Assembly: GCA_003218515.1 (NCBI GenBank) | Contig: QHNT01000055.1 | Location: 10,644-74,643 of the forward strand | DNA from: Verrucomicrobiota bacterium | GTDB taxonomy: Bacteria; Verrucomicrobiota; Verrucomicrobiia; Limisphaerales; AV2 | Reading direction: 5' to 3' | Length of the DNA: 64,000 bases | Shown here: positions 10,341 through 57,445 of the stretch, one piece after another | Position numbering within the stretch: position 1 is the stretch's first letter | How the letters are laid out: every line of letters begins with the position of its first letter | Position numbers and translations under genes: made by a program | The notes under the pieces: generated by a model | What the model saw: the letters and a program-made list of their open reading frames with translations, nothing else | Told to the model about the DNA's origin: nothing | The model's database searches: none

Positions 10341-10379
10341 AAACAAAAAAGGGCGGCCCGTAACCGAGTCGCCCCGCCC
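10341..10379 (-). terminator. Candidate rho-independent terminator closing the long minus-strand array
   Basis: On the minus strand, GGGCGG...CCGCCC (6-bp GC stem, long loop) is followed by TTTTTTGTTT. It lies ~150 nt downstream of the thioesterase stop. A separate perfect 8-bp hairpin (cgtcggct/agccgacg, 10485-10505) sits just after the stop but has no U-tract. Confidence 0.4.
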
Positions 10380-10528
10380 TCATGTGAAAGGGACCGCACC
10401 GCATGTTGGACAAGCACGCTGAAATGAAGCTTTGGAACGGGCAGTGTCCTGATTCAGCGTCGAGTGGGCTGTCCTCGGCACACTCGTCGGCTGAGACAGC
10501 CGACGCTACAATTCAATTCAGGGCATTC

Positions 10529-11515
10529 CTATTTGACACTCCGTGCGCGGCACTCCCTGAAGAGCTCGGCAAACACAGGTGCGTAATGCTCGCGGAGCAT
10601 GATGTCGGTGTTGCAACCGTCCGGTCCGAAGTATTCCTCGGCGTGCTGCGCCACTGATCTCCACCGCAGTGGTTCATTGCCAGAGCGCACCCATTCTTTG
10701 CACGGCAAGAACAGGCTGACACGGCCCGCGAAGTGACCGGGTGTGTAGCGACGCGCCGCCGCAATCGTGGCGCGCTCAACCTTGGCGCGCAGGACCAGCA
10801 CTGAATCCGGCTCGGCAGGACGCTCAGCAGTTCGTTGCGCCTCGTGGTTGCGCAGTTTCTCGGCGATGTACAACCGCCGTTCCCTGGAGGACCGCGATGC
10901 CAGCGCCCGGGTGTGCGTGATCACTCGCGCCACCTGATCCACGAGTTGCTGCCGCAGTTGCGGCAGCAACCGGTACGAGGTCGGATAAGGGGCGCCAAAC
11001 AGGGCGAGAAAGCTGATCGCCGCGCGTTCCTGCAGGAGTTGGCGCCCCAACTCGAAAGCGATGGTGCCGCCGGTGCAGAAGCCGGCGATGATGTAAGGTC
11101 CGCCCGGTCGGAACGCGCGGATCTGGGCTGCGAAGTACGCCGCGAGGTCCTCGATGCGGGTGAGCGGTTCGCTCTGGCCGTCGCGACCGGGAGGCTCGAG
11201 CCCGTAGAACGGCTGATCGTCGCCCAAGTGCCGCGCGAGAGCGCGGTAGCAGAAGACGTCGCCGTTGTGCCCGGCCACGGCAAAAATGGGGGTGCGCTTC
11301 CCGCGCGGCTGCAGCGGCACGATGGCGCGCTGCTGCTGAGCAAGCGCTCCGGCCGAGTGCAGGAACTCCAGGATATCGTTCTTGCGTTGCTGCAACTGAT
11401 CGCGCAGCTCGGGTGTCAGCGCGTCGGCCGGAGCATTACACCGCAGCCGATCGCCGTCGGCCCAGACCTGGATATCCCGGCGGCGCAACTCAGCGAGCAA
11501 GGCTGGCACCCTCAT
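10529..11515 (-). CDS. Stand-alone thioesterase with N-terminal TubC-type beta-hairpin docking domain; nucleophile motif GxCxG
   Basis: ATG at 11515 overlaps the NRPS stop (ATGA). MRVPALLAELRRRDIQVWADGDRLRCNAPADALTPELRDQLQQRKNDILEFL looks like a TubC_N docking domain. The alpha/beta-hydrolase TE core PIFAVAGHNGDVFCYRALARHLGDDQPFYGLE...IIAGFCTGGTIAFELG has Cys (codon 11075-11077) where GxSxG Ser is expected. Confidence 0.8.
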   Translation of the reverse strand: MRVPALLAELRRRDIQVWADGDRLRCNAPADALTPELRDQLQQRKNDILEFLHSAGALAQQQRAIVPLQPRGKRTPIFAVAGHNGDVFCYRALARHLGDDQPFYGLEPPGRDGQSEPLTRIEDLAAYFAAQIRAFRPGGPYIIAGFCTGGTIAFELGRQLLQERAAISFLALFGAPYPTSYRLLPQLRQQLVDQVARVITHTRALASRSSRERRLYIAEKLRNHEAQRTAERPAEPDSVLVLRAKVERATIAAARRYTPGHFAGRVSLFLPCKEWVRSGNEPLRWRSVAQHAEEYFGPDGCNTDIMLREHYAPVFAELFRECRARSVK

Positions 11516-13320
11516 AGCTCGATCTCCACCCTGTCGCCGGCAAGGGCGGGCTGCTGCCGGGAGCTTGCTGCCCACACGAGGGCATCGATGGCCTCGGCCA
11601 GCGCTGAAACAGTCGGCCGTTCAAAGAGAACACGAAGCGGCAAATCGAGGCCCGAGGCGGCACGAAGTTGAAACATGATCCGGGCCGCCATGAGCGAATG
11701 GCCGCCGAGGTCAAAGAAGTTGTCGAACACCCCGAAATCGGTGCGGCCAAGCACACCGCGGAATACGCTCGCGACCATTTCTTCACTGGGCGTCCGAGGG
11801 TCAACCGCGACGGCGCTTGGCAACCCATCTCCCAGGCTGGGCGCCGGCATCGCCTTGCGATCGAGTTTGCCGTTGTGGGTTCGCGGCAGCGCCTTGAGCA
11901 TGACGAAGTGGGCGGGGACCATGTACTCGGGCATGGCGGCGCGCACCAGCGCGCGCAACTGACCGACCAGGTCGGCCGGCGGGTTCTCGGCGACGAGATA
12001 GGCAACGAGGCGCTTATCCCCCGGGGTGTCCTCGCGCGCGATGACTGCGACCTCCCGAACGGCGGGGTGCTGCGCGATACCGGCCTCGATCTCCCCCACT
12101 TCGATGCGAAAGCCGCGGAGCTTGATCTGGAAGTCAAGTCGGCCAAGGTGCTCGAGCGTGCCGTCATTGCGCCAACGTGCGCGGTCACCGGTGCAGTAGA
12201 GGGTAGCTCCTGGGGTCGTGCCGAACGGGTCCGGGATGAATCGGTCGGCGGTGAGCTCGGGGCGATTCCAGTAACCGAGAGCGACCCCATCGCCTCCGAT
12301 GCACAATTCGCCAGGGACGCCGACAGGGCACAGGCTCTTCCGCACGTCGAGGACGCGGACGGTGGTATTGGCAATTGGCTTGCCGATGGTGATCCCGTTG
12401 GAGGTGTTGGTAATGCGGGCGCAGGTGGACCAGACCGTGGTCTCGGTGGGGCCGTACATATTCCACAACTCAATGCCGCCTGCGATCAACTGATCAGCAA
12501 GATCTTCAGGCATTGCTTCGCCACCGACCAACGCCTTGAACGCCGTCCTGGGGGTCCAGCCTGCCTCCAACAGCAGGCGCCAGGTGACCGGGGTGGCTTG
12601 CATGACGCTGGCGCAATGCCGTTCAAGGAGGCAACCGAGGGCATGGCCGTCGACGGTTTCATCGTGGGTCGCGATAACGACCGTGGCGCCAACCGTGAGC
12701 GGCAGGTAGAGCTCGAGCACGGCAATGTCAAAGGATAAGGTGGTGACGGCCACGAGCACGTCATTGGCGGTGAGGCCGGGCTCGCGGGCCATGCTGCTGA
12801 GGAAATTGACGACCGCGCGGTGTGGCACGACGACGCCCTTGGGTTTGCCGGTGGAACCGGAGGTGTAGATGACATAGGCCGGGTCCCCGGGCTGCGTAGC
12901 ACACACATCGGCCGGCACATGGGTATCCGACGTGGAATGGATGGTCTCGCCATCGGCCTCGAGAAGCAGATGGGCGCCCTGGAGCGGCTCGTCCAACAGC
13001 ACAAGACTGACGGCGCTGCCCTCCAGACCGGCAGCCAGATTCTTTTGGGTGACGACAACGGCGACGCGCGAGTCGGCGAGCATGAAGGCGAGCCGCTCTT
13101 TCGGGAAGGCCGGGTCGAGCGGCAAATAGGCGCCGCCAGCCTCGAGAATGCCCAAAATGCCGACGACCATCTCCAACGAGCGTTCCACGCAAATACCCAC
13201 AAGCACGTTTGGGCCGACGCCCAATTTGCGCAAATGCTGAGCGAGCTGATTGGAACGGCGATGTAATTCCCGGTAAGTGACGTGCTGATCTCGGAACGTA
13301 ACCAGACACGCGGCGCTTGG
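11512..13320 (-). CDS. NRPS module 2 adenylation + thiolation (A2-T2), Gly-like code; no convincing own start, out of frame with upstream C domain
   Basis: ORF 11512..13461. Homology starts only at ...ACLVTFRDQHVTYRELH... (A1 core), followed by YTSGSTGKPKG, NMYGPTE, GELCIGG, YCTGD and T-domain FFDLGGHSLMAA. The first ~45 codons of the ORF are an out-of-frame read of the C domain. Confidence 0.75.
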   Translation of the reverse strand, partial: PSAACLVTFRDQHVTYRELHRRSNQLAQHLRKLGVGPNVLVGICVERSLEMVVGILGILEAGGAYLPLDPAFPKERLAFMLADSRVAVVVTQKNLAAGLEGSAVSLVLLDEPLQGAHLLLEADGETIHSTSDTHVPADVCATQPGDPAYVIYTSGSTGKPKGVVVPHRAVVNFLSSMAREPGLTANDVLVAVTTLSFDIAVLELYLPLTVGATVVIATHDETVDGHALGCLLERHCASVMQATPVTWRLLLEAGWTPRTAFKALVGGEAMPEDLADQLIAGGIELWNMYGPTETTVWSTCARITNTSNGITIGKPIANTTVRVLDVRKSLCPVGVPGELCIGGDGVALGYWNRPELTADRFIPDPFGTTPGATLYCTGDRARWRNDGTLEHLGRLDFQIKLRGFRIEVGEIEAGIAQHPAVREVAVIAREDTPGDKRLVAYLVAENPPADLVGQLRALVRAAMPEYMVPAHFVMLKALPRTHNGKLDRKAMPAPSLGDGLPSAVAVDPRTPSEEMVASVFRGVLGRTDFGVFDNFFDLGGHSLMAARIMFQLRAASGLDLPLRVLFERPTVSALAEAIDALVWAASSRQQPALAGDRVEIEL

Positions 13321-16300
13321 GTGAAGCGACCATCGCTTCGAGCAGCGAGCGCCAATTCGTCGCCATGCGCGCGATAGTCTGCTCCTCGAACAGATCGGTG
13401 GCGTACTCGAAGAGTGCGCTGAGTCCCTCGGCCGTCTCCTGCACGTGCAGCGTGAGGTCAACCATTGCCACTCCGGGGTCCACCTCGAGCGGGCTGAGCG
13501 TAAGGCCCGGCAGGTCCAGCGGCCGCAGCGGCGCGTTCTGCAGCGCGAACATCACCTGGATCACGGGGTTGCGGCTGAGGTCGCGCGCGGGTCGCAACTC
13601 CTCCACCAGCCGCTCGAAGGGCAGGTCCTGGTGCGCAAAAGCGTCCAGGCACACTTCGCGCATGCGGCCGAGGAACTCCTTGGCCGACGGATCGCCCGAT
13701 AGATCGGTGCGCAGCACCAGGGTGTTGACGAAAAAGCCCACCACATCCTCGATCTCGGCGCGGTTGCGGTTGGCAACTGGCGTGCCGACAAGAAGGTCTT
13801 GCTGACCGCTGTAGCGCGAAAGCAGCGCCGTGAAACCGGCCAGCAAAGTCATGTAAAGCGTCGCGCCCTCGCGCCGCGCAAACCCGCGCAGCGCCGCAGT
13901 CAGCTCAAGGGGCAAGCTGAACGAATAAAGCGCCCCGCGGTTGCTCTCCACGGCCGGCCGCGGCCGATCGGCGGGCAACTCAAGCACTTGAGGAGACTCA
14001 GCAAGACGCGACCGCCAGTGCACGAGCAGTCCCTCCAGCGCTTCGCCCTGCAGCCAGTTGCGCTGCCAACGCGCAAAGTCACGATACTGAAAACGAAGCG
14101 CCGGCATCGTTGCCCCCTCTCCCCGGCAGAAGCGGCCATACAACTCGCCCAGCTCCCGGAACAAAATGCCCAGCGACCAGCCGTCGGAAATGGCGCTCAA
14201 GTCCACCACCGGCAGCAGCGTCCACTCGCCCGGCTCCGACACAACCTGCAGCGGCCGTCCCTCGACGTTCACGAAGCTCGTGCGCAGCGACTCATGGCGG
14301 CGGACGAGCTCCCCGAGCGCGCGCTCAAGCATCGGCGCATCGAGCGCCCCGCGCATCTCGAGGGCTCCCGCGATCACATAAGTCGCCTTTCCGGGCTCCA
14401 TCTGGTCCAGGAACCAGAGCCGCTGCTGCGAGAAAGAAAGTTCCGCCGGTCCGGGTTCCGCGGCCGCCTCCAATGGCCGAGCCGTTAGACCAGGCGCGGA
14501 GCCCGCCTGCAACACCCCGATGCGCGCCGCCAGGCGCGCAACCGTCGGGGCGGCGAAGAGATCGCGCAACGGCAACTCGACGGCGAGCGCCTGGCGCACG
14601 CGGGAAACGACCCGCATGGCCAGCAGCGAATTGCCGCCCAACTCGAAGAAGTCTTTGTCGATCCCCACACGCTCGAGGCCGAGAACCTCCGCCCAAGTGC
14701 CGGCCAGAATCTCCTCGGTGGGAGTTCGCGGTGCCAAGCAGGCAATCTGCTCCGAGTCAGGGTGCCTGGGGACCGGCAGTCGCTTGCGGTCGATCTTGCC
14801 GTTAGGGGTAAGCGCAAAAGAATCCAGCAGGACAAAGGCTGCCGGAACCATGTACTCCGGCAGACTTGCGCGAAGCAGCGCGCGCAACTCGCACACCAGA
14901 TCGGCAGACGGCTTCTCGGCCACGACGTAGCCCACCAGGCGCTTGTCGCCCGGGACGTCCTCGCGCGCAAGCACCACCACCTCCCGTACGGCAGGGTGTC
15001 GGCTGAGGGTCGATTCGATCTCCCCCAGCTCGACGCGAAAGCCGCGGATTTTGACCTGGTGATCAATGCGCCCGAGAAACTCGATACACCCGTCTGCGCG
15101 GAATCGCACCAGATCACCCGTCTTGTAGAGCCGCGCCCCGGCCTCACCGCTGAACGGATCGGGGACAAACTTCTGCGCGGTCAGCTCCGGCTGGAGCAGA
15201 TACTCGCGTGCCAGTCCATCGCCCCCGATGCACAACTCCCCGTACACACCGATCGGCACCGGCTGCATGTGGTGGTCCAGAACGTACACCCTCGTGTTGC
15301 TGATCGGTCGGCCAATCGGAACCGTCTGATCGATGCGGCTCTGCGCCGTCATGACGTGACAGCAGGTAAAGGTGGTGTTCTCGGTCGGACCGTACCCGTT
15401 GATGAGCCGGTTCTTTCCGACCATTTCGAGCATCCGGCGCACATGGGAAACGGACAACGTCTCTCCCCCTGTCAGCAGTTGGCGCACGCCCTGCAGACAT
15501 CCGATCTGCTCGTCAACCATCTGGTGAAACAGCGCCGCCGTCAGCCAAAGCGTGGTCACGCCATGCTCTTGAATCACGCGACCCAGCTCTTGTAGCGACA
15601 GCGGCCCCGCAGGGCACACCACCAGCCGGGCACCGTTGAGCAGACTGCCCCAAAGCTCCAAGGTGGACGCATCGAACGAGATCGGCGCAAACTGCAGGAA
15701 CACCTCTGGCGGACCCAACTCCACATAATTCGTGGACTTCACCAGACGCACCACGCTGCGGTGCTCGATGCAGGTCCCCTTGGGCCGACCGCTGGAGCCC
15801 GAGGTGTAGATCACGTACGCGAGGTTGCGGGCGTTGAGCCCAACGTTCAGGTCGTTCTGGTCCTCGAGCGCGATCTGCGGCCAGTCCGCATCCAGAAATA
15901 CGGTTCGCCCGGCACACGCCGGCAATCTGTCGCGCAGTTTGGCCTGTGTCAGCAGCACTGGCGCGGCAGTGTCCTCGAGCATGAAGCTCAGGCGCGACGC
16001 CGGATAATCGGGATCCAATGGCACGTACACCCCTCCCGCCTTGAGAATGCCCAGGATCCCCACCACCGTCTCCAGGCTGCGCTCCACGCAGATGCCGACC
16101 ATGACTTCCGGCCCCACCCCATGACGCGCCAGGTAACGGGCGATTTGATTAGCCCGGTCATTGAGTTCTCGGTACGTGAGCCGCTGTCCCTCATACTCGA
16201 GCGCTACTGCGTCGGGCGTGCACCTCGTTTGCGCCTCAAAAATTTCGTGGATACACGAATTGCGCGGGTAATCCACGGCTGTTTGGTTCCAATCCACCAG

Positions 16301-17749
16301 CAGTTGCTGGCGCTCAGCATCGGTGAGCAACGGTAACGTGGAAATACTTTGGTCCGGCTCGCGGGCGATCGCTTCCAGAAGGTTTCCGAAATGTCCACAT
16401 AGACGCCGAATGGTCTGAGCTTCGAATAAATCCGAGCAGTACTCAAACCGTCCCTGGTAATCTGCGGCGTCCTCGTAGAGATGAAGACTTAAATCAAACT
16501 GGGCGAACTTCAGATCAAAATGAAAGCTGCTGATGTCCAGGTCGCCGATTCTCGGCGGGGTGCCGGCCAACACCTGCAACACGACCTGAAAGACAGGATT
16601 CCGGCTTGGGTCCCTTTCAAACTTCAGGTGTTGCGTCAGGGCTTCGAAGGGCAGGTCGCTGTTGGAAAAGGCATCGAGCGTTGTGTCCCGAGTCCTTCGC
16701 AGCAATTCGATAAAGGTTGGATTGCCCGACAGGTCGCATCGCAAGGCAGCCATGTTGAGGATAAGCCCGATCAACGGCGCGAGCTCGCCGGGGTTTCTCG
16801 CAGCGAGAGGCGTTCCAATAACAATATCCTCCGCGCTGGAATACCGCTGAAGCAGCACTTGAAAGGCCGCCAAGACGGTCATGAAAAACGTGCAGCCTTC
16901 GCGCGCGCCGAGTGACTTCAGGTCCTGCACCAGCGCGGCGGGGATGTTGAAAAAGACATTCGAGCCGTGGAAGGACTGGAGGGCCGGCCTGGGTTTGTCC
17001 GCGGGCAACTCGAGGACGGGAAGCGTGCCGTCCAACTGCTTCTGCCAGAACTCAATCTGTTTGGCATAGGCGGCTTCATTGAGCATCATGTTCCGCTGCC
17101 ACAGGGCAAAATCCCCATACTGCACGGTCAACTCGGGTGGACGCGTTTCGATACGCTCGGTGAACGCCCGATAAAACGTGTTCAGCTCGTTCAACAGCAG
17201 CTCAATGGACAGTCCGTCCGCCACGATGTGATGCAGGTTGATGATTAAGACGTGTTCGGCTTCCCCCAGCTTGAACAAGGAGACGCGGATCAGCGGGAGC
17301 CGAGACAGGTCGAACGATTTGACGGATACTTCCGAGGCCAGGGCTTGCAGTCTGTTCTCGCGTTCCTCGCCCGCGACGTGATCCAGTTCCGTGACATTTA
17401 TTTTGATTTTGAGTTCGGGATGGATGAGTTGCAGGGGCTCTTCGTCCTTCACGGCGAACGTGGTTCTCAGTGCCTCATGCCGTTTGATGACTTCATTGAA
17501 GCTGTCTTCCAGAGCCGTCAATTTCAACTGGCCACGAAGACGAAATCCGTACGGCAGGTTATAAGCCGGATTACCCGGCGTCATCTGATCGATCAACCAC
17601 ATCTGGCGTTGAGTAAACGACAGGGGGGCGGAGTCACGATTGGGCCGTCTGGGTATTTCAGGACGCCTGGCCAAACCGTGGGAAGCCCTCTTCCAGCGCC
17701 GCTCCAGCAGCGCTTGCTTCACCGGTGAAAGCGTGGATGACTTCTGCAT
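13319..17749 (-). CDS. NRPS: C1-A1(Val-like)-T1-C2(degenerate). Reading frame runs on as nonsense to 12761
   Basis: ORF 12761..17893, with the likely start at M49 (17749), after the PKS stop at 17784. C1 has HHIVADGLS. A1 has YTSGSSGRPKG, NGYGPTE and YKTGD. T1 is FFELGGNSLLAM. C2 lacks HH (VVDLSA|ISDGWS). Homology ends at ...LLEAMVASP (about 13319). Confidence 0.8.
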
Positions 17750-17783
17750 AAGACTCAGGTCACTCTCTGGCGGGAGGCTAAAG

Positions 17784-47115: not shown

Positions 47116-47173
47116 GCGGCGTGCCCGGGCTCCGAGAGGCGTCTCTGTGTGAGTTCGGGGAGGCTGGATTCGT

Positions 47174-48520
47174 TCAGGCGCTGACCTCGGAGATGGTATA
47201 ACGGTATTTGCCGGAAGGATGCGGCGGCAAGTCGTCGGGAAATTCAAAATCAACCCGGCAATCCGCCCCCATCACCAGTCGCGCTTTCGCCGCGATGTCC
47301 TCGAGTTCACTCCGGCTCGGGCCGCCGTTCGCCCGGACGCACTTGAACAGGACGTGCTCTTGGGCCTTCTGGACCACCTGAAACTTCCGGACCCAAGGCC
47401 GGAAATAGAGGAGGTGCGTAAAGTATTCTCCGTCGATCAGCGTCTGGTCGCGTGTCCTGAACACGTCCACGCTGCGACCGGACACCCGCTTGAGCACTTG
47501 AGTGCCCGGATGCTCGGCCAGCGTGTCGTCGGGACGCAGCGCGCCGCGATCACCGATCCAGTAGCGGAGCAGCGGCATGGCGTAGTTGGTCAGGCACGTC
47601 ACGACGATGTTGCCTTCCGTGCCCGGCGGCACCGGGCGGCCCGCCTCATCCACGATTTCCACAAAATTGCCCCAGGGCGCGACCCAGAGCCCGTCGAGGC
47701 CCGGCAGTTCACAGGCAATATCACTGACCTCGCGCGAACCATACAGGTTATAGACTTCACATCCGAACACGGTTGCGATCTTCTCGCGCATGAACGGATA
47801 GAGGGTGCCGGCCGAGGTGAGCACGGCCCGCTGCGGCGCGACGGAAATCCGCTCCCCTTCAGCAAACCGCGCCAGTTCATAAGCTGCTTGCACGTAAGCC
47901 ACGATCAGGCGCGGGCGCAGTCGATTCAGCGATTGAATGAACTGCCGCATGCGCTCCGGGGACATGAGAAACGCGTTCAACCAGGTGGTGTTGGTCAGCC
48001 AGTTGAAGAAGCGGGCTTTGCGGGAGTTCGTGCCTCCCTCCAGGTCGCGCTCGGATCCCCAGAGCCGGACAACCGGCTCGCCAACCTCACCACCCAACAG
48101 CCAATTGTAGAACAAGCCGATGGCGGCGCTGCGATCGTCGTATTCACTGTCCTGAACGAGTCGGACAGGTTCGCCAGTCGAACCGCCGGAGGTATTGTAG
48201 GACCACTTTCGGCGTCCAAGATCCGTGGACTGGAGTTTGACGAATTCAGCTCGAATCGTTTCTTTCGTCACGATCGGCAGGCGAAGCAGAAACTCTCTTG
48301 GATCTGCGTCTTCCAGGTGGGTGCTGTCTATGCTCCGAAAACGCTCGACGTAGTACGGCACGGCACCTCGGCAATGCCGTAGCAGCCTGGCTAAGGCACG
48401 CGTCACCGTCTCACGGCCCACTCCGCCCTCATATTCCCGCGAGTACTGCGCAAGCAACGACGGAAAACGATAGCCTCGCAAGGAAGCGTAGGACAGGTAA
48501 GCTGGTTTTCTCCAGTTCAT
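47174..48520 (-). CDS. CapK / phenylacetate-CoA ligase-family adenylate-forming enzyme
   Basis: ...WSYNTSGGSTGEPVRLVQD... (AMP-binding P-loop variant). About 448 aa. Confidence 0.7.
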   Translation of the reverse strand: MNWRKPAYLSYASLRGYRFPSLLAQYSREYEGGVGRETVTRALARLLRHCRGAVPYYVERFRSIDSTHLEDADPREFLLRLPIVTKETIRAEFVKLQSTDLGRRKWSYNTSGGSTGEPVRLVQDSEYDDRSAAIGLFYNWLLGGEVGEPVVRLWGSERDLEGGTNSRKARFFNWLTNTTWLNAFLMSPERMRQFIQSLNRLRPRLIVAYVQAAYELARFAEGERISVAPQRAVLTSAGTLYPFMREKIATVFGCEVYNLYGSREVSDIACELPGLDGLWVAPWGNFVEIVDEAGRPVPPGTEGNIVVTCLTNYAMPLLRYWIGDRGALRPDDTLAEHPGTQVLKRVSGRSVDVFRTRDQTLIDGEYFTHLLYFRPWVRKFQVVQKAQEHVLFKCVRANGGPSRSELEDIAAKARLVMGADCRVDFEFPDDLPPHPSGKYRYTISEVSA

Positions 48521-50131: not shown

Positions 50132-52420
50132 TTAGCCGCCGGTGGCGTCGGGAGCGGAGTGGCCCGCCAGCGCGGTTGCGCGTCTGGTCTCCTTGGGTTC
50201 CCAACGATAGGCGCGCCGATAACGCTGATAATAATCATGCCCGTAAGGCGAGGAAGCTGCGCGGTTGAAAATCAGACCCAACACATGGACGTGACGCTGC
50301 CGTAATGCATCCAAAGCTCCGCGCGCCATTCGCGCCGAAGTGAACGACCCGCGCACCACGAACAGGACGCCATCCACTTTAGGTGCCAGGCTCGCCGCAT
50401 CGTCGGTCGCCAATACCGGAGGTGTGTCCACCAGAATGTAGTCAAACTGCGGTTTAGCTTCAGCCAGAAAGCCCGGCCAGACCTGGCTCAACACCAGTTC
50501 GCCGGGATTTCGATTTGCTTCGCCGGCCGGCAGCAGCGCCAGATTTTCCAACCCGGTGGGAACAATCGCCTCCGCGAAGGAAATTTCCTCGTTAAGAATC
50601 TCCGCCAGGCCGGGACGGGGGGCTGTGCCAAAAAACGTGTGCAAAGTCGCCCGGCGCAGGTCCGCGTCAATGAGGAGCACACGCGAGTTGGCCCTGGCCA
50701 GCGTGGCGGCCAGATAAAGCGCGACCGTCGATTTGCCTTCCTCAGGGACCGAACTGGCGACGATAATCGTTTTCGGTTTCGTTCCCCCATTGCTCATGAA
50801 CAGGAGCGAGGAGCGGATGCTGCGGAAGGCCTCCAGAAACTCGAAGCGCTGCTTTTCCAGCGCTTCGACGCCGAGCTGGCGTCTGGGTTTCTTGATGGAG
50901 ATGGCGGGGATTTGACCCACCACTTCCTCGCAAAGCTGGTTGGTCAGTTCCGCCAGCGAGGCAAAGTCATCCTGAAACAAACCGATACAATAGAGTAATC
51001 CGAAACCCAGGAGCAGAGAGCCGATCAGTGCGATCGCCATGTTTCTGAGCACCCGATGGGTCGGCGTCGCCACCGACGCCGGTTCCAGAATACCGACATT
51101 CTCCTGCTCCACCTTTTTGCTCACATCCACCGTCTGGATGAGAGTCAACGTTTTGTCGTAAGCGGTCTGGAGCCGCTGCAGATTTTGGCGGATTTGTTCG
51201 TAATCAGCCATTTTGCGGCTGGACTCGATGGCTTTGGCATCCCATTCCTTGAACGCGGCTTCCAAATTTTGGACCTGCAACTCGATGGCCTGACGCCGAT
51301 GAGCCAGTTGTTTCAGCGCTTCGTCCCGCGAGATTTGAACCAGTTTCTCCTGAGTCGCGATCTGTTCGTTTAGTTTTAAGATTTTCGGATGTAACGGGCG
51401 CAGGAAACGGGAAAGCTCATCACGCTTGGCCTTGAGCAACTGCATTTGTTGGTTCGCCTTGAACAATTCGAGCTGCGGCTCCGCCAGGCTTGCCAACATC
51501 TCTTTCTCAGTGGCTGGGTCCGGCAAAGATTCACCGGCTGGCACGCCTTTGTGGCCGGTTTCGATCCACTGCTCAGGCTGGAGCGACTGCAGCAGTCTCA
51601 GCTCGGTGCGCAGAGTGGCGAGCTGCTTGTTCAGCGAGGCCAGATAGCTTCCGGCGCTGTTCCCTTGCTCCTGCAGAAACACGACGTTGTTCGACGCCTG
51701 GAAAGCGTGCAATTTCTCCTGCTGAGCCTCCAACTCACCCTTCAACTGTGTCACCTCGGCGCCCAGGGATGTCGCGGTCCGGTCGGAAGTCTTCTCCCGA
51801 GATTCTTTTTTGAAGCTCAGATACTCCTCCATCAGGCAGTTAAGAAAGGCCCGGGTCGAGGCGGGCTCTGCTCCGATGGCCCGCAGCTCCAGAGTGCTGC
51901 TTTTGGCGCCTTCCAGAACTTTGACGTCGAACGGAAACCGCGGCGGCGCATTGCTGCTGGAGGTAGAGCCGGATGCAAACAGCCTCTTGCAAAGCGCCTT
52001 GGGCTTGTGGAGCAGTTCTGATTGCCTTCCACCGCCATCGAGGAGCACAGCAAGGTCGGGATTGAGTTCCGAGCGCAACCTGGCCAGTGCGCGGCCCTGA
52101 ATCGCCGGGCTGCGCAGCAATTCCGCCTGGGTCCCAAGAAAATTGATCAACTCTTCCGTATAGAGCCGGCCCTCGTAGATATCGAGTCGGCCGGTCAGCC
52201 ACATCCGGGCCTTCGACTCATAGGCGGGCAGAGAATTGAAGCTCAGGACACCGACCGGCCCCAGCACCAAAACCAGGATCAAAACAATCACCCACCAGTA
52301 CCGGCCCAGCAGAAGCCACCACCGATGCAGCCGTCCATACAGCCTTGAGGCCGAAACGAACCTGTCCGCAGGGGCGAACAAATCCACTGCCGCAGCGTTA
52401 GGGTGGTTGTTGTTGTTCAT
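50132..52420 (-). CDS. Polysaccharide co-polymerase with C-terminal BY-tyrosine kinase (Wzc/GumC/EpsA-B-like)
   Basis: N-terminal TM segment, long coiled-coil periplasmic region and a second TM segment. Walker A SVPEEGKST, A' LLIDADLRR, B YILVDTPP, and a Tyr-rich tail PYGHDYYQRYRRAYRW. Confidence 0.85.
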   Translation of the reverse strand: MNNNNHPNAAAVDLFAPADRFVSASRLYGRLHRWWLLLGRYWWVIVLILVLVLGPVGVLSFNSLPAYESKARMWLTGRLDIYEGRLYTEELINFLGTQAELLRSPAIQGRALARLRSELNPDLAVLLDGGGRQSELLHKPKALCKRLFASGSTSSSNAPPRFPFDVKVLEGAKSSTLELRAIGAEPASTRAFLNCLMEEYLSFKKESREKTSDRTATSLGAEVTQLKGELEAQQEKLHAFQASNNVVFLQEQGNSAGSYLASLNKQLATLRTELRLLQSLQPEQWIETGHKGVPAGESLPDPATEKEMLASLAEPQLELFKANQQMQLLKAKRDELSRFLRPLHPKILKLNEQIATQEKLVQISRDEALKQLAHRRQAIELQVQNLEAAFKEWDAKAIESSRKMADYEQIRQNLQRLQTAYDKTLTLIQTVDVSKKVEQENVGILEPASVATPTHRVLRNMAIALIGSLLLGFGLLYCIGLFQDDFASLAELTNQLCEEVVGQIPAISIKKPRRQLGVEALEKQRFEFLEAFRSIRSSLLFMSNGGTKPKTIIVASSVPEEGKSTVALYLAATLARANSRVLLIDADLRRATLHTFFGTAPRPGLAEILNEEISFAEAIVPTGLENLALLPAGEANRNPGELVLSQVWPGFLAEAKPQFDYILVDTPPVLATDDAASLAPKVDGVLFVVRGSFTSARMARGALDALRQRHVHVLGLIFNRAASSPYGHDYYQRYRRAYRWEPKETRRATALAGHSAPDATGG

Positions 52421-52432: not shown

Positions 52433-53077
52433 TCAATAATTCACCAGCCGGGCGGGTACAACGATCAAATCGTCCGGCTGAACCACCAGGTCTTTATCCA
52501 GATTCCCCTTCTCCCAAATATCAACGACGTTGATGACAAAAGTCTGCTTCCCGTTGGCGGTCTTGCGGATCAACCGCACGTTCTTCTTGTCGGAAAAGTC
52601 GCTGAACCCACCGGCGCTCAAAATCGCCTTGCTGACGGTGAGGGTCTCGCCTCCGGGAATTTCAAAGCCACCCCGGTTGCGCACCTGGCCGGTAACATAG
52701 ACCTTGCCGGAAACCCGCGTCTTGTTCACTACCTCAATGGCGATGATCACCGTCGCTTGATAATAAAGTTGCTTCTCTAAAAGGCCTTTGACTTCCTTCG
52801 CGAGCTGCAGACTGGTTTTGCCCGCAGCGTGAACCAGCCCAAGGTAGGGCACTTCCAGATCGCCCGAATCGGTTATCGTCAGGGAGCGAGGGTCGTCCTG
52901 GTCCTCGATCACGCGGTAAGTGACACGGTCGCCAGGCCCCAGCTTCTGGCGATCGTCCAGCAAAGTTATTGGCCTGGCAGCGTCCGGGAGCACCAGGCTG
53001 TTGGTTTCCTTCGTCTCGGCGCTGGCAAGATGCACGCCGAAACAAATAGCCATCAAAATAAGGGATCGCCTTTTCAT
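52433..53077 (-). CDS. Polysaccharide export protein (Wza-like; Poly_export + SLBB)
   Basis: ATG at 53077 gives the signal peptide MKRRSLILMAICFGVHLASA. ...LGPGDRVTYRV...LEVPYLGLVHAAGKT...VYVTGQVRNRG... Confidence 0.8.
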   Translation of the reverse strand: MKRRSLILMAICFGVHLASAETKETNSLVLPDAARPITLLDDRQKLGPGDRVTYRVIEDQDDPRSLTITDSGDLEVPYLGLVHAAGKTSLQLAKEVKGLLEKQLYYQATVIIAIEVVNKTRVSGKVYVTGQVRNRGGFEIPGGETLTVSKAILSAGGFSDFSDKKNVRLIRKTANGKQTFVINVVDIWEKGNLDKDLVVQPDDLIVVPARLVNY

Positions 53078-53181
53078 GATCTTAAAGACGCTTCGGAATT
53101 TTCGTGGAGAGCCTTCTCGGCCATATTTCCGACGACAACGGACCACACGTCTCCGGCTGAGGAGCGACCAAACCCTGCTTT

Positions 53182-54480
53182 TCAATAGCTGAAGGCCAAA
53201 TCCCAGGAGAGCCGATTCCGAGCAAAATCTCGCGACGGGAAGTCCGACTCTTTCAGGTAGAAATCATATCCCAGGTCTGTCCGCCAGTACTTGTGGAACT
53301 GATAGCCAATCGTCAGGCCGGCGCGATAATAGGTGAATTTTTCACTAAAGGCCCCGCCGAATTCCTCTGCGAAATTGATGGATAAATTCGCTCCCAGGTC
53401 CACATGGTTGAGGACGGGCGAGGAAATCGAGTAGCGAACGCGGGTTGTCCTCAAGTTGTTCGCGTTGTCGCCAAGCAGATGCTCCCGCGCGGCCGTCAGC
53501 GCATGGGTGAACAAACGTGTTTCCTGCTGGATTCTCACATACACATAGTACGTCTCAAAATTGCCGTCAGCACCAGCGGCATCAAAACGGGCCGTATCGA
53601 AACCGCCCCCGGCCCGCAGGCCGATTTTCTCTTCGGAGTTGACTTCCACAAACGGCCCCACCCTGGCCCTCCAATTGTTATTGAGCACAGTTTCCCGCCC
53701 GTAATCGTGCCGACTCGCTTGCGCTTCCAAACCGGTTTGCGCGTTGTCGCCGATCCGCAATGACGCGCTGGCTCTAAACCATTCTGAAGCCCGATTCAGG
53801 TAGTCAAACTGCGTCGTCACGGGGATGAAATTCTCATGGTCGTACCCCGCTGAGAAAACGACCTTATTGAGGTCCCAATCGACGTTCAGCCCGGCCAGAT
53901 TGTCCCAGCGGGAGAACTTGCCCACATCATTGAAATTGAAGAACAGCTCGTTCGCGCCAGGGAACGAGTTGAAGAACAGGCTCTCCTGATAAGAGAACTT
54001 CTCGTGCAATTTGATTCGAAAATCACCCACGAAGACATTGAACCCCAGTTCTGAATCCGGGTTAATCAGCGGTGCACCGCTGTTCAGGATCGTGTTGTTC
54101 AGATACCATTCATAGCCCAGGCCAAGGGACAGCCTCAGCGTGTTGAGTTCGGTGATCGGCCATAACGCCCGCAGATCAACTTCCGGGTTGACCAGAAAAT
54201 CCGCTTTCCGATTCTTTTCAGAGTAAAAGACGTTGTCCGTGTACCCCAGGCCCACGCTGCCCTGGGTTTGGAAGCGGACAGGACCGTACTTCAGATTATA
54301 CTCCTCAGCCGCAATCGACTTTTTCAGTGCCTGCGCCGCTTCCTCTCCGGCCAGCGACCCGCGAGTTTGGGCCTGTCCGACCGGTCCCGAAAATACGCAA
54401 CCGCAGGCAACGAAAACCCGCAGACATGCGAAATCGGTCAATGATCGAAAGCCGCTGCCGGGCAGGATCGTTTTGTCCAT
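53182..54480 (-). CDS. Outer-membrane beta-barrel protein of the EPS locus
   Basis: ATG at 54480. Signal-like N-terminus, alternating amphipathic pattern, and the C-terminal ...LSWDLAFSY with a terminal aromatic residue. Confidence 0.6.
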   Translation of the reverse strand: MDKTILPGSGFRSLTDFACLRVFVACGCVFSGPVGQAQTRGSLAGEEAAQALKKSIAAEEYNLKYGPVRFQTQGSVGLGYTDNVFYSEKNRKADFLVNPEVDLRALWPITELNTLRLSLGLGYEWYLNNTILNSGAPLINPDSELGFNVFVGDFRIKLHEKFSYQESLFFNSFPGANELFFNFNDVGKFSRWDNLAGLNVDWDLNKVVFSAGYDHENFIPVTTQFDYLNRASEWFRASASLRIGDNAQTGLEAQASRHDYGRETVLNNNWRARVGPFVEVNSEEKIGLRAGGGFDTARFDAAGADGNFETYYVYVRIQQETRLFTHALTAAREHLLGDNANNLRTTRVRYSISSPVLNHVDLGANLSINFAEEFGGAFSEKFTYYRAGLTIGYQFHKYWRTDLGYDFYLKESDFPSRDFARNRLSWDLAFSY

Positions 54481-54686
54481 GAATCGTCCCCTTGTCCTCG
54501 TCGTCGTCCTCGTTCTCGGTCGGTGAACCTGGTTTCGAACGCGAGGAGCAATATGAGGACAATCCGGTTCATGGTCGGTGAGCAGGTCCAAACGGAACAG
54601 GAGCCTTTCCATCAATCCGCAGGCGGTGCTCAGTCGATGCTTCTTAATCGAAAGCACCCAGTTTGGCCTGTGCGAAAGACCGGGCG

Positions 54687-56387
54687 CTATGGGGCGGCTC
54701 GCAACCGGTAAAACCGGGCGCCCTGCGAAATGGAATTCGTCACTACGTATTGACCGCCGACGACGACAGGGGTGCTGAGATCATCCGTCCAGGCGCTGTT
54801 GGGGGACAAGCTCTCCGTGAATTGCAAGACCCACTTGCCGGAGTTCGTCGGCCAGGAGATCTGCGCTTGACCATCCACCGCCGCGGCTTGCAGACGGACC
54901 GAACCGGGCAGCAGGATAAAGACGTTGAAAGTCGGCCCGGTTGGCGGCGGGGTGAGCAAGGGACCGTTGGGGACGGCTACTTTCAAGCCTGTCATTGGAA
55001 GGTCCAGCGGCTGGCCGTCAAAGACGCCGCTCAACACCGGCGGAGCGAAGAAATCCTGAGCGTTTCGCACTTCGTAAGCCGCGCCTGGCGCCAAGGTCGA
55101 GCTGACATCAACGGTCACGTCGCTCAGTTTGTCCCAGTTGTAAACAATAATGTTCGCCCGCCCTGCCTCATACCGGTTGGGCCGCACAAAGACCTTCGTG
55201 CCGGTGAGCTTGGCCACGCTGTAGGTGCTGTGGCTGTCATAGCCCGTGTCGCCCTGCCAATCATAAAAGCCGTACTCGGTCGAATTTCCCAGGAAATCCC
55301 CGCCCGCTCCCGAACGCGAGTAACTGTTGTCATTCCAGGCGGTCGCCAACGGGACCTGCGTCTGGTTCAAATTGACGATGTAACTCGAGCTTTGCGCCGC
55401 GAACAGATTCCCGGCCACCGCGGCAATGGTCCAGTTGTTCATCACCAGCCCCTGCGGCAGGTAGTTGTTCAGGAGAGCCACGCTGCCGTTCACCCCTTCA
55501 CGACCGATCTGCACCTGCTCGAGTGCGCCCGATCCCGCCGCGTAGTAACCCATGTTGTTCTTCAAAATAATGCCGTCCGCGCCCACCGCCGGAGCGTCCA
55601 CCCCAACGATCCAGTCTCGATAGGTCCGCACCGCCTGGATCGCCCCTGCATTGAAGGCCACGTTGCCGTCCAGCGTGATTCCCACCAGGCGCATGTTGGT
55701 GGCGTTTTCATAAATCTGAAAATTGGCCCCCGATGCGTTGAAGGCCATATTGTCCGTTATCTCTCTCGTCCCCCGGTTGCTTTGAACGTAAAAGTTGTGA
55801 CCCTCAGCGTTGTCGGGCGAAGCCCAGCCGTTATTGTAAACCAGACACCCATACACAAGATTGTTCGTCGCGTATTCCGAAATGTAGAAACCGTGGCGGG
55901 TCTGATCATGAACCACGAGATTGATGAAGCTCATATTCGGCACATAAGACGCGACTCCGGGAATGATCTTGATGTCGGTCGGATCGAACCCGGCGCCGAT
56001 TTGAGCGCTGAGGCGGTTCGTGTCCGAGCGGTACAGTTCAAAATCTCTGAGGACCACATTTCCCGCGCTGGAATAGAAGGTCAGCGAACCGTCAACGCGC
56101 GCCCTCTCTCCAGGCATTTGGCGGAACGTGATCGGCTGTCCGGGCGCTCCTTCGATTTTGGTGTCGATGTGTCCAATCACATAGTTGCCGCCGCTCAACC
56201 AGACCGTATCACCCGCTTGTCCCGCTTGGCCTGACAGCGCCGTCGCCAGGTCGTACGGTTGCGCCATCGTCCCGGGACCCAGGGGAGTTCCGTCGGGGGA
56301 AACATACAAATCATTCCCCAGGATCCCGAGCGGAATGAGCAGAACGCAGAGAACGCATAAGCGCACGGCGAGGGCAGCGTGGACCAT
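54687..56387 (-). CDS. Secreted right-handed parallel beta-helix protein (candidate EPS lyase/epimerase) with C-terminal ...RFYRL tail domain
   Basis: ATG at 56387 gives a signal-like MVHAALAVRLCVLCVLLIPLG. DLYVSPDGTPLGPGTMAQPY... plus repeated N/G-rich beta-helix turns. Tail is ...ISWPTNSGKWVLQFTESLSPNSAW...GARFYRLRAAP. Confidence 0.7.
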   Translation of the reverse strand: MVHAALAVRLCVLCVLLIPLGILGNDLYVSPDGTPLGPGTMAQPYDLATALSGQAGQAGDTVWLSGGNYVIGHIDTKIEGAPGQPITFRQMPGERARVDGSLTFYSSAGNVVLRDFELYRSDTNRLSAQIGAGFDPTDIKIIPGVASYVPNMSFINLVVHDQTRHGFYISEYATNNLVYGCLVYNNGWASPDNAEGHNFYVQSNRGTREITDNMAFNASGANFQIYENATNMRLVGITLDGNVAFNAGAIQAVRTYRDWIVGVDAPAVGADGIILKNNMGYYAAGSGALEQVQIGREGVNGSVALLNNYLPQGLVMNNWTIAAVAGNLFAAQSSSYIVNLNQTQVPLATAWNDNSYSRSGAGGDFLGNSTEYGFYDWQGDTGYDSHSTYSVAKLTGTKVFVRPNRYEAGRANIIVYNWDKLSDVTVDVSSTLAPGAAYEVRNAQDFFAPPVLSGVFDGQPLDLPMTGLKVAVPNGPLLTPPPTGPTFNVFILLPGSVRLQAAAVDGQAQISWPTNSGKWVLQFTESLSPNSAWTDDLSTPVVVGGQYVVTNSISQGARFYRLRAAP

Positions 56388-56638
56388 GGTCACGTCCGTA
56401 GTTGAATAGAATCGGAGCAACATTGACCTGCCGGACGCAGCCTCGAGCCTTCGATCGGACGCCGACCAGAAGTTCCGGTCTATCCTCTTTCAGCAAAAGC
56501 TCTGGTGGCTCAGAATCGAAGCGAAACGCCGCGATCCTGAATTGACGCGTTAAGAGCCATCCCCAGCTCTTCTACACTCAACCGTCGTTGACCACCGGAC
56601 TCGTCCGCGGGCCATCCACTAAAGCCATATTCGCGCTG

Positions 56639-57265
56639 TCAAGCGGCAACTACTCCGGTCGGTAAAACCGGGTTCTGAACCATCGGCTCGTCCACGGAAA
56701 CCGATTCAACCCGCCGGAGCGCGATCCCGGCGGCACTCCGCCTGTTAAACAGCACGAAGTTCAGACTCAGTTCGGCAGGCACCGAGCGGCCCATAACGTC
56801 CACGAGAATTCGCGCTCGCTGTTTACCCGGCAGGACGTGTGTGACCAACGCCTTCGTGCCGACAAACGGCCCGGTGGCAATTTCTACTTCCTCTCCTTCC
56901 AAAGGAGCGTCCGTTAATACCGTGGAACCAAGTTCGCTCAGGCCTTGCCGCAAGTCCTCAATCACCCCGTCCGGTATTTCCGGCATCCGATCGCCAAATC
57001 GCAGCACCACCTTGACTGCCGGAGTGTACCTGACCTTCTCCAGCATGGACTTCAAAGCGAAGCGAGCGAACAGGTAATTGGGAAACAGAGATTCCGTGCT
57101 CCATCTACGGCCACGCCGCGTCGAGCGCAAAAGCCGCAGTTGCGGATTGAACACTTCCACGCCACGAATCTGCCGCAAATGGGCTGCGGCAATGTGCTCA
57201 CGCTTCATATGCGTACGGATGCATCGCCAGGCTTCGTCGGCTCGACAAGTGCAAAGCTCCGCCAT
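56639..57265 (-). CDS. NusG/RfaH/UpxY-family transcription antiterminator paralog (NGN + KOW)
   Basis: ...WRCIRTHMKREHIAAAHLRQIRGVEVFNPQ...SLFPNYLFARF...YTPAVKVVLRFGD (NGN), then GEEVEIATGPFVGTKALVTHV (KOW). Alternative starts are at 57286 and 57328. Confidence 0.75.
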   Translation of the reverse strand: MAELCTCRADEAWRCIRTHMKREHIAAAHLRQIRGVEVFNPQLRLLRSTRRGRRWSTESLFPNYLFARFALKSMLEKVRYTPAVKVVLRFGDRMPEIPDGVIEDLRQGLSELGSTVLTDAPLEGEEVEIATGPFVGTKALVTHVLPGKQRARILVDVMGRSVPAELSLNFVLFNRRSAAGIALRRVESVSVDEPMVQNPVLPTGVVAA

Positions 57266-57445
57266 TGGTGAGGAAGTGGCTTCCATCTCCGTTTTCACGT
57301 CGGCTTTCGTTTTGTTGCCTCGGACCACCCAGCATTGTCCCGACTCGAACTAGACCGGGAATCGATGGCCCAGAAGCTCGGCGGCTGGTGCGTAAATTAA
57401 AATAGTGGATTGCTGGTAGCTATGGGGTCTCTCCCTATTCTTCGT
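57230..57445 (-). repeat. Leader + 5' coding end of the antiterminator gene (copy A of a duplicated ~210-nt segment)
   Basis: Aligns block-wise with 58105-58315. Shared minus-strand blocks include acgaaNaataggga, accccatagNtaccag, ttcccgg, tagttcgag, ccgaggc, gagatggaNgcNacttcctc and gcggagctttgc. Confidence 0.7.

Follow-up and report, generated by a model that had tools for sequence, protein, structure and literature searches.

The analysed window is a stretch of 64,000 nucleotides of a Verrucomicrobiota bacterium (assembly GCA_003218515.1, contig QHNT01000055.1, positions 10,644 to 74,643). It carries an array of 28 co-directional genes on the minus strand, running from position 57328 down to 10529 after two broken genes were merged. 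20 of these genes are of the exopolysaccharide (EPS) type, namely a paralog of NusG and 19 genes of a Wzx/Wzy/Wza/Wzc-type locus, and the other eight belong to a thiotemplate line with a polyketide synthase (PKS) and a nonribosomal peptide synthetase (NRPS). Gene calls were derived from a six-frame listing of open reading frames (ORFs) together with Pfam and NCBIfam scans, and gap lengths were measured from the longest ORFs. For comparison, 167 loci of relatives were fetched, which are referred to by L-numbers. A sequence-only reading of the same DNA had counted about 28 genes between 57.3 and 10.5 kb, all on the minus strand, and every gene named there is supported by Pfam or NCBIfam. From the head of the array downwards, the EPS-type genes are:

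56639..57328, minus strand: specialised NusG paralog with an NGN domain (PF02357) and a weak KOW domain, likely start ATG 57269
54687..56423, minus strand: beta-helix protein of 578 aa, the conserved second gene of the locus family (L135, L139, L146, L163)
53182..54657, minus strand: DUF2490-like putative outer-membrane protein (sub-threshold match, conserved position)
52433..53185, minus strand: Wza-type export protein with Poly_export and SLBB domains (PF02563, 40.7 vs 28)
50132..52420, minus strand: Wzc-type chain-length determinant / tyrosine autokinase, PCP-2a (TIGR01007, 134.5 vs 108)
48545..50101, minus strand: Wzx flippase (PF01943, 43.3 vs 28.2)
43406..48520, minus strand: PaaK-like adenylating enzyme, unknown 327-aa protein, DUF2334/deacetylase-like protein and AsnB-type amidotransferase (Pfam/NCBIfam)
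42129..43571, minus strand: Wzy-type polymerase, Wzy_C (PF04932, 59.8 vs 31.7)
35463..42116, minus strand: two GT4 glycosyltransferases, polysaccharide deacetylase, GT2 glycosyltransferase, SAM methyltransferase and DegT-type sugar aminotransferase (Pfam/NCBIfam)
33782..35434, minus strand: initiating polyprenyl-phosphate glycosylphosphotransferase, Bac_transf (PF02397, 190.8 bits; TIGR03025, 252 bits)
31905..33720, minus strand: PglF/PseB-like UDP-HexNAc 4,6-dehydratase, broken (intact with 661 aa in L086)
30800..32017, minus strand: terminal GT4 glycosyltransferase at the junction, called GT4c here (Pfam/NCBIfam)

They are followed by the junction and the thiotemplate genes:

30681..30799, minus strand: EPS/thiotemplate junction of 119 nt with no U-tract terminator
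26644..30711, minus strand: loading protein DH-FkbM_methyltransferase-FkbH-ACP (acyl carrier protein), 1345-1355 aa (TIGR01686, 304.4 vs 146.65)
25784-26554, minus strand: O-methyltransferase-like protein, Methyltransf_24 (Pfam/NCBIfam)
25281-25544, minus strand: free-standing ACP of 87 aa, newly found compared with the sequence-only reading
24119-25315, minus strand: acyl-CoA-dehydrogenase (ACAD)-like protein (Pfam)
22467..24098, minus strand: free-standing adenylation (A) enzyme, code DVWHFSLVDK = serine
17784..22460, minus strand: type I PKS module KS-AT-KR-ACP with intact KS Cys-His-His and AT motifs GHSMG and HAFH (malonyl-type motif)
11512..17893, minus strand: NRPS C-A-T-C-A-T in two overlapping ORFs (Pfam)
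10529..11575, minus strand: stand-alone thioesterase (TE) with a TubC_N docking domain and a Cys nucleophile, GFCTG (Pfam)
10341..10390, minus strand: candidate intrinsic terminator, GGGCGG..CCGCCC followed by T6 (terminator scan)

The junction between the two parts of the array is real, old and tightly packed. A metagenome scan yielded 80 orthologues or paralogues of GT4c, and 37 orthologues (at least 64% identity, range 64-100%) had at least 300 nt of usable downstream sequence; a neighbour-joining tree of GT4c was built without bootstrap. Thiotemplate genes lie downstream of GT4c in 31 of the 37 loci (19 with FkbH, 12 with NRPS genes). GT4c is directly followed by the FkbH gene in 19 cases and by a C-A-T NRPS gene in nine, while in three the NRPS gene comes after an epimerase and/or carbamoyltransferase gene; the remaining six show no thiotemplate gene in the available sequence. 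The junction is kept while GT4c diverges to 64-66% identity. The upstream order GT2, methyltransferase, DegT, Bac_transf, PglF and GT4c is common to the window and the GT4c-orthologue loci, and in L086 the gene order of the window is repeated across 16 genes. In six relatives (L103, L107, L110, L111, L118, L120) the GT4c stop and the FkbH start overlap or are separated by at most 20 nt, which argues for co-transcription there. L084 and L090, which are the nearest relatives that are informative here, have a gap of 39 nt, and compared to them the window junction contains an insertion of 125 nt. The sequence-only reading had placed the end of the last glycosyltransferase gene at 30800, as found here, and the start of the loading enzyme at 30711; a GTG start at 30711 is possible, but homologues favour ATG 30680, which gives the gap of 119 nt.

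On the GT4c tree, FkbH-type and NRPS-type loci are interspersed, and all junction types end in orthologous TubC_N-Cys-TE genes with 55-80% identity. Therefore, the distal end of the EPS array behaves as a slot in which the cargo is exchanged within one functional class. The sugar block upstream of this slot also contains carrier-protein genes in some relatives, as an ACP and an acyl-AMP ligase gene precede GT2 in L112, L115 and L130. A carbamoyltransferase gene lies between the NRPS genes in L112; in such relatives, a gene of the NodU/CmcH type is located between or before the NRPS genes, and genes of this type are also present in L124, L125 and L129. In the terminal NRPS modules of L112 (16284-20027) and L115 (12967-16695), the A domain is interrupted by a luciferase-like monooxygenase, and only half of a C domain is present. 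Downstream of GT4c in L127 lies a gene for a LuxR homologue (40% identity).

The gene at the head of the array encodes a NusG paralog whose NGN domain reaches 39.1 bits with PF02357 (cutoff 22.2, residues 33-126), while its KOW domain with 19.9 bits stays below the cutoff of 22.3 for PF00467. The protein stays below the curated models for RfaH (TIGR01955, 81 bits vs 144.5; NF006534, 65 vs 124), UpxY (NF033644, 51.2 bits vs 100) and LoaP (NF033641, 43.8 bits vs 125). No UpxZ-type gene is located directly downstream, the next gene being that of the 578-aa beta-helix protein. Orthologues with 54-62% identity head syntenic EPS loci, and the NusG paralog is the first gene in L135 and L139, where the upstream genes run in the opposite direction. 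Loci L135, L139, L146, L159 and L163 reproduce the first half of the array, which extends from the NusG paralog to Wzy, and the NusG-led EPS architecture is therefore a conserved family in its own right. The first half is syntenic with many soil metagenome loci, and the four-gene order from the PaaK-like enzyme to the AsnB-type amidotransferase is repeated in L139 and L146. GT4 paralogues of lower identity (52-63%) are located between Wzc and Wzx in the same five loci. In L017, a NusG paralog with 38% identity adjoins a Bac_transf gene, divergent from the thiotemplate genes. The sequence-only reading had taken the NusG paralog as the first gene. It does head the EPS array and is the first gene in relatives, but in the window the co-directional run reaches further upstream, to the window edge, with an ORF at 57397-57966, an Ig/beta-helix protein and a DnaE-like gene on the same strand. 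The features upstream of and around the NusG start are:

57209..57446, minus strand: leader copy overlapping the start of the NusG paralog; hairpin GGAAG..CTTCC followed by GCGGAGCTTTGC at 57251-57262
58075..58313, minus strand: upstream leader copy, containing GTGCGGAGCTTTGC at 58118-58131
58760..61828, minus strand: Ig/beta-helix secreted-type protein of 1022 aa with beta-helix, Big_7 and Ig-like domains (Pfam)

The leader is present twice, as about 240 nt including the first codons of the NusG paralog were duplicated directly (57209-57446 and 58075-58313) with 75-80% identity and a period of 867 nt. A 25-mer, ACCCCATAG[C/A]TACCAG[C/T]AA[T/A]CCACT, is confined to these two copies and absent from all fetched loci. 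A shorter element is shared with relatives: the 14-nt sequence GTGCGGAGC(T/C)TTGC lies 40-70 nt before the ORF of the NusG paralog in L135 (1223-1236), L139 (3260-3273) and L146 (84-97), and it occurs in the window at 57249-57262 and 58118-58131. It was found nowhere else in the 167 fetched loci. Within the array no further copy was detected, for example before the FkbH gene, except for a one-mismatch match at 50311, which is at chance level. The element is preceded by a short inverted repeat, which is TGGTT..AACCA with TTCG or TGCG loops in the relatives and GGAAG-CCA-CTTCC or GGAGG-CAA-CTTCC in the window. In an RNAalifold analysis of a MAFFT alignment of the five leaders, the hairpins are out of register and give no usable covariation. 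By analogy with leaders of other specialised NusG proteins, the 14-nt element is a candidate recruitment or pause site for the NusG paralog.

The 189-aa ORF at 57397-57966 sits between the two leader copies; it has no Pfam match and no homologue in any fetched locus. The Ig/beta-helix protein lies outside the interval described by the sequence-only reading, yet it is a member of the same locus family, as homologues with 48-70% identity adjoin the GT4c-type loci L127, L131 and L141. For the DnaE-like fragment, the best named matches are Verrucomicrobiota metagenome-assembled genomes (MAGs) with 69-83% identity.

The EPS-type genes contain a full set for a Wzx/Wzy-dependent pathway with OPX/PCP export, since the initiating transferase, Wzx, Wzy, Wza and Wzc are all present above the model cutoffs. 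The six-gene order from the first GT4 gene to DegT is repeated in L086 and L096. Pfam and NCBIfam scans revealed no PglD-type N-acetyltransferase gene beside the trio of PglF-like, DegT and Bac_transf genes. It was considered whether such an acetyltransferase stands in for the NRPS in relatives that carry the EPS genes alone. This idea was rejected, as none was found there; these loci carry an epimerase, a carbamoyltransferase, an FGE-sulfatase-type protein or a histidine kinase.

Among the thiotemplate genes, the sequence-only reading had named a PKS loading enzyme, whose domain set was determined here as DH-FkbM_methyltransferase-FkbH-ACP. The protein shows DH His58, the DxDxT motif (DCDNTLW at residue 844) and GGTS of the ACP at residue 1283. 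A HAD-IIIC FkbH match above cutoff, the DxDxT motif and a cognate ACP are thus all present, as expected for FkbH-type glyceryl loading. Cyanobacterial matches from Nostoc, Scytonema and related genera (L033-L040, L047, L048, L053, L078) align to the methyltransferase-FkbH-ACP part only (query residues ~337-1322), which is fused to NRPS modules there. As these matches do not extend further, the N-terminal DH domain is specific to the soil-bacterial cassette. The combination of FkbH, DH and methyltransferase suggests an O-methylated and/or dehydrated glycerate starter. Specificity codes were derived by comparison with GrsA-PheA, which served as a control and gave its own code correctly; in the NRPS they are DALWLGGTFK (Val-like) for module 1 and DILQLGMVWK (Gly-like) for module 2. 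The motifs of KS, AT, C1, A1, A2, T1 and T2 are present, C2 is without HHxxxDG, and the thioesterase has Cys for Ser. The predicted product is small and polar, with a C3 starter, one reduced C2 extension and then Val and Gly.

In the relatives, the gene order is the FkbH protein, a 3-hydroxyacyl-CoA dehydrogenase (3HCDH), in some cases Methyltransf_24, the ACP, the ACAD-like protein, the serine-specific A enzyme and the PKS, followed by NRPS and/or TE genes. The 3HCDH gene is present in L001-L006, L027, L084-L087 and L119; tblastn and motif searches detected no 3HCDH, phosphopantetheinyl transferase (PPTase) or MbtH motif within the window, in line with the sequence-only reading, which had noted the lack of a PPTase and an MbtH-like gene. 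The stand-alone serine-specific A enzyme, the free ACP and the ACAD-like protein match three of the components of an aminomalonyl-ACP route, and the fourth, 3HCDH, is absent from the window. These four are the components of the route known from zwittermicin and colibactin. Use of aminomalonyl-ACP is not established, as the AT carries the malonyl-type HAFH motif, and we know of no reliable sequence signature for aminomalonyl selection. The thioesterase belongs to a docking family in which Cys in G(F/Y)C(A/T)GG replaces the Ser that is normal in type I thioesterases, as seen in 10 of 10 orthologues (window, L010, L015, L021, L087, L096, L097, L112, L115, L121). Its best NCBIfam match is the TE region of Pks13 with 39 bits, and a PDB sequence search returned generic type I TE relatives alone, which is uninformative on the acceptor.

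More than 500 close homologues of the FkbH protein were found. Among species representatives, the cassette was found in MAGs labelled as Betaproteobacteria, Acidobacteriota, Verrucomicrobiota, Gemmatimonadota, Ignavibacteriota and others, and the downstream cassette is always the same. Its closest relative is L027, labelled Verrucomicrobia. The commonest upstream neighbour is a PPTase gene directly before the FkbH gene, which characterizes the stand-alone cassettes (L002, L004, L006, L010, L011, L013, L018, L024, L037, L085, L087). In the embedded cassettes, GT4c occupies the position that is held by the PPTase in the stand-alone copies. Glycan genes occur near the cassette across phyla. Full export or assembly sets are located upstream in L001, L003, L018 and L086, a WecA-like transferase gene adjoins the PPTase gene in L002, L004 and L037 and is divergent in L023, and a Bac_transf gene is present in L017, L018, L031 and L086. 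In these eight loci with a WecA-like or Bac_transf gene, the transferase gene lies within 10 kb upstream of the cassette. A genome encodes just a handful of initiating transferases. For about 6 of 21 loci to have one within 10 kb is therefore far above a rough expectation of 1%, an order-of-magnitude estimate in which some loci are related. Glycosyltransferase genes adjoin the cassette or lie inside it in L003, L010, L017 and L026. One conserved glycosyltransferase borne by the cassette beside FkbH was considered and rejected, as those of L003 and L010 are not orthologous to GT4c. The cassettes of L017 (13909-15000, Verrucomicrobiia MAG) and L026 (13805 onward, Ignavibacteriaceae MAG) each include a GT2 gene immediately downstream of the FkbH gene. 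In the betaproteobacterial MAG L004, a LuxR-type autoinducer-binding regulator (300-1091) is encoded about 9 kb upstream of the cassette.

Besides the junction, gaps of 215 nt (56424-56638), 239 nt (25545-25783) and 89 nt (26555-26643) were measured in the array, and the remaining intergenic gaps are at most 83 nt or overlaps. Of the large gaps listed in the sequence-only reading, those at 56.4-56.6 and 25.5-25.8 kb were recovered, while the one at 54.5-54.7 kb depends on the chosen start and shrinks to 29 nt with the longest ORF. The single candidate terminator proposed for the end of the array was also recovered: a GC stem with T6 at ~10347-10385, after the TE stop, is the sole intergenic terminator-like site on the minus strand, although a weak candidate. 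Scans for sigma-70 promoter and intrinsic terminator consensus sequences gave counts equal to shuffled controls across the window and thus neither support nor exclude such signals, and an Rfam gathering scan of the whole window gave no match. From the spacing in relatives, we infer that the thiotemplate genes are co-transcribed with the last sugar genes.

These findings suggest a mechanism for the array as a whole. The locus of this soil bacterium is one for a Wzx/Wzy-dependent polysaccharide with export by Wza and Wzc. The locus-encoded NusG paralog, recruited at the conserved leader, would sustain elongation by RNA polymerase through the whole array, and the slot at the distal end holds the thiotemplate line. 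There, FkbH would load a glycerate-derived starter that is processed by the DH and methyltransferase domains; one KS-AT-KR-ACP module and the Val-like and Gly-like NRPS modules would follow, with the docking Cys-thioesterase at the end, and the set of serine-specific A enzyme, ACP and ACAD-like protein, together with the 3HCDH of the relatives, may provide an aminomalonyl-ACP route. The product could enter the glycan pathway as the N-acyl group of a 4-amino-4,6-dideoxy-HexNAc, which the PglF-like and DegT enzymes would supply, before or after transfer of the sugar to undecaprenyl phosphate. Alternatively, the terminal GT4 may glycosylate the product; either way, it would be a variable decoration of the polymer.

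We tentatively favour, with somewhat less than even confidence, that the glycan pathway uses a small thiotemplate product as a decoration, most plausibly as the N-acyl group of a 4-amino sugar. This decoration reading is preferred because genes for initiating transferases and glycosyltransferases are repeatedly associated with the cassette across phyla, the slot has a restricted cargo, relatives have carrier-protein genes within their sugar block, and an N-acetyltransferase is absent. Covalent attachment to the glycan is a plausible hypothesis.

Several points weigh against this decoration. No transferase that joins a carrier-bound acyl group to the sugar was identified, and any role of the thioesterase in this step is conjecture. 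It is also normal for a 4-amino sugar to stay free, as AATGal does in zwitterionic polysaccharides, so the missing acetyltransferase is weak evidence. The 31 of 37 junctions come from metagenome contigs, which are not independent evolutionary samples and include the near-duplicates L100/L101 and L088/L147/window. The gaps of 119 and 239 nt in the window could hold promoters, for which the consensus scans are uninformative in this phylum. The upstream neighbourhoods of the cassette are heterogeneous, as 134 ORFs scanned with Pfam match 142 different families, and in MAGs of Acidobacteriota, Gemmatimonadota and Chthoniobacterales the cassette is found in diverse settings outside EPS loci. In L087 it lies with its PPTase gene and an orthologous TE gene beside era, recO, pdxJ, acpS, uvrC and pgsA. 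The cassette can thus stand alone, and its product is presumably a free metabolite in such cases. Likewise, no thiotemplate genes follow the EPS sub-block in L124, L127 and L130. The sequence-only reading had asked whether the two blocks travel together and had named either block alone at unrelated loci as evidence against a link. Both were observed: the blocks are joined in 31 of the 37 GT4c orthologues, and each also occurs alone, the cassette in L087 and many contexts across phyla and the EPS block in the three loci just named. The coupling is therefore facultative; it is frequent and apparently selected, not obligatory. As the junction recurs in dozens of contigs from soil metagenomes, a functional link between the blocks is probable.

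It is quite possible, if somewhat less probable than the decoration, that the thiotemplate line makes a free metabolite, such as a linear or beta-lactone/amide-type polyketide-peptide, which is co-expressed with the matrix and never attached. The autonomous cassettes with their own PPTase and the same Cys-TE fit this explanation, as does the lack of a coupling enzyme, and tight gene spacing fits shared transcription equally well. Cys-thioesterases are known for ring-forming release in obafluorin and sulfazecin. The terminal modules of L112 and L115 with their monooxygenase suggest amide release; we take their A domain with the embedded monooxygenase to resemble the MtaG-type amide-releasing modules, which would yield a free product. 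A free metabolite leaves unexplained why initiating phosphoglycosyl transferases and glycosyltransferases are such frequent neighbours across phyla, why the cassettes of L017 and L026 contain a glycosyltransferase gene, and why almost nothing but thiotemplate or sugar-modifying genes occupies the slot after GT4c. In addition, domain scans revealed no exporter for a free product in the window.

An adjacency without function is unlikely. The PKS-NRPS genes would then be a mobile cassette at a recombination hot spot, forming the variable 3' end of a mobile EPS locus, with separate promoters and unrelated roles. Occurrence of both blocks alone, GC steps along the array (0.55-0.62 in the EPS genes, 0.55-0.58 from FkbH to PKS, 0.64-0.66 from NRPS A1 to TE), the 125-nt insertion at the window junction and the interspersion of FkbH and NRPS types on the GT4c tree, which indicates frequent exchange, are consistent with such a history. 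However, mere adjacency does not fit a junction that is kept in 31 of 37 contigs down to 64-66% GT4c identity, stop and start codons that overlap in several relatives, a cargo limited to one functional class with an orthologous TE, or a PPTase gene that was lost specifically in the embedded copies.

The window copy itself carries four lesions, which also count against a functional decoration pathway in this genome. The PglF-like gene lacks ~170 nt and shifts frame at 33212-33259. The independent contig L088, which is from the same strain and 99.96% identical over 4.6 kb, departs from the window right at 33212 and has an open ORF there; the break reflects either strain variation or a misassembly. 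The 3HCDH gene is cleanly missing, leaving the gap of 89 nt, while it is present in L027 and L084 between neighbours with 81-97% identity. In the C2 domain (~13900-14100), an in-frame gap of ~45-50 aa removes HHxxxDG, and the NRPS frame shifts between C2 and A2 at ~13304-13320. Furthermore, the GC content rises inside the NRPS gene at the C1/A1 boundary from ~0.56 to 0.64-0.66 and stays high through the TE gene (10529-16260), which points to recombination or a foreign origin of the A-T-C-A-T-TE segment, or else to a chimeric assembly. The lesions may be real decay, recombination or assembly errors, and the architecture of the relatives is unaffected by them. That the window copy is decaying or partly an assembly artefact, with no functional EPS-PKS-NRPS unit in this genome, would account for the lesions and the GC jump but is very unlikely, as all remaining ORFs are long, uninterrupted and equipped with conserved catalytic motifs, and the intact versions in relatives make the architecture real regardless.

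Returning to the decoration, a wider picture can be drawn, which we consider possible but rather doubtful. The locus would represent a widespread class of soil-bacterial EPS with a covalently attached polyketide-peptide, in which the Cys-TE hands the moiety to the initiating amino sugar or to the polymer, module swapping diversifies the glycan, and an array of about 50 kb is read by a new NusG subfamily at its own leader. If the link between the two blocks is functional, thiotemplate chemistry would join the means of surface-polysaccharide decoration and contribute to glycan diversity in abundant uncultured soil lineages. A genomic rule would follow, with a terminal GT4 gene, then FkbH or NRPS genes and a docking Cys-TE gene. 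One NusG paralog would carry RNA polymerase through polysaccharide and megasynthase genes, so far seen only separately, and the conserved leader element would be a directly testable recruitment site. Even if the product is a free co-regulated metabolite, matrix production and secondary metabolism would be wired into one transcription unit.

Compared with known systems, the head of the array is similar to RfaH, UpxY of Bacteroides capsules, TaA of Myxococcus and LoaP of Bacillus, the last two acting on polyketide operons, as a NusG paralog with an NGN and a weak KOW domain is encoded at the start of a very long and costly operon. The targets of such specialised NusG proteins are polysaccharide and polyketide operons, and both gene classes occur in this array. 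The window paralog differs in staying below the curated RfaH, UpxY and LoaP cutoffs. The ops consensus in the leaders of RfaH targets is GGCGGTAGnnTG. This ops element was not found in the array leader, which carries the 14-nt element instead; the leader element GTGCGGAGCYTTGC differs from the ops consensus and resembles it in a GCGG core alone. A leader hairpin together with a conserved sequence is needed by RfaH (an ops DNA hairpin) and by LoaP (a small RNA hairpin) (PMC7593976; PMC12691694), and it is by analogy that the element and hairpin described here are likened to these leaders. In the case of LoaP, antitermination requires a small UNCG-type RNA hairpin (PMC12691694); in the five sequences compared here, the loops are TTCG or TGCG in the relatives, whereas they are CCA and CAA in the window.

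The sequence-only reading knew of no described system that joins EPS and PKS-NRPS genes, and our literature search found no equivalent either. Within a literature coverage that is incomplete, we found no description of an operon with a NusG paralog in which polysaccharide genes are joined to thiotemplate genes; the same applies to an FkbH, NRPS or thiotemplate line within Wzx/Wzy polysaccharide loci, which is absence of evidence. Wzx/Wzy EPS loci and group-1-capsule-like loci share the initiating phosphoglycosyl transferase, the glycosyltransferases, Wzx, Wzy, Wzc, Wza, the AsnB-like amidotransferase and the deacetylases with the window, which differs from them by the distal thiotemplate genes. 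It also differs from PEP-CTERM/XrtA EPS loci, as all specific models (TIGR03027, TIGR03018, TIGR03108, TIGR03088, TIGR03013) remain below cutoff and no exosortase was seen among the scanned ORFs.

FkbH glycerate loaders are known as bryostatin BryA-type and cyanopeptolin-type proteins, and the related malonyl-ACP routes comprise FkbGHIJK, ZmaN/D/G/E, ZmaJ/H/G/I and ClbH/E/D/F. These hydroxy-, methoxy- and aminomalonyl-ACP systems share with our locus the FkbH-ACP fusion, the free ACP, the ACAD-like protein, the stand-alone serine-specific A enzyme, the O-methyltransferase-like protein and, in relatives, the 3HCDH. The window differs by its missing 3HCDH, by the N-terminal DH-FkbM arrangement before FkbH, which is not the one of those systems, and by the HAFH motif of the AT domain.

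The closest parallels to the proposed decoration are DltABCD (D-alanylation of teichoic acids), RfbK-O of the Vibrio cholerae O1 tetronate side chain and the Pks13 thioesterase (transfer of mycolate to trehalose). As in our locus, adenylating enzymes and carrier proteins are found among glycan genes, and in our locus, too, an acyl group would pass from phosphopantetheine to a sugar. However, these systems transfer one simple acyl or aminoacyl group with dedicated transferases (DltB and DltD), whereas a multi-module PKS-NRPS with no identified transferase is present here, and the resemblance is a lead. The glycosylated lipopeptide and glycolipid loci, namely those of mycobacterial glycopeptidolipids, heterocyst glycolipids and myxoglucamides (PMC13638107), likewise have NRPS or PKS genes clustered with glycosyltransferases and sugar methyltransferases. 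Their products are glycosylated small molecules made without Wzx/Wzy polymerisation or Wza/Wzc export, while the aglycone predicted here is short and not lipidic. Each component of the array is thus of a known kind, and it is their conserved combination that is new.

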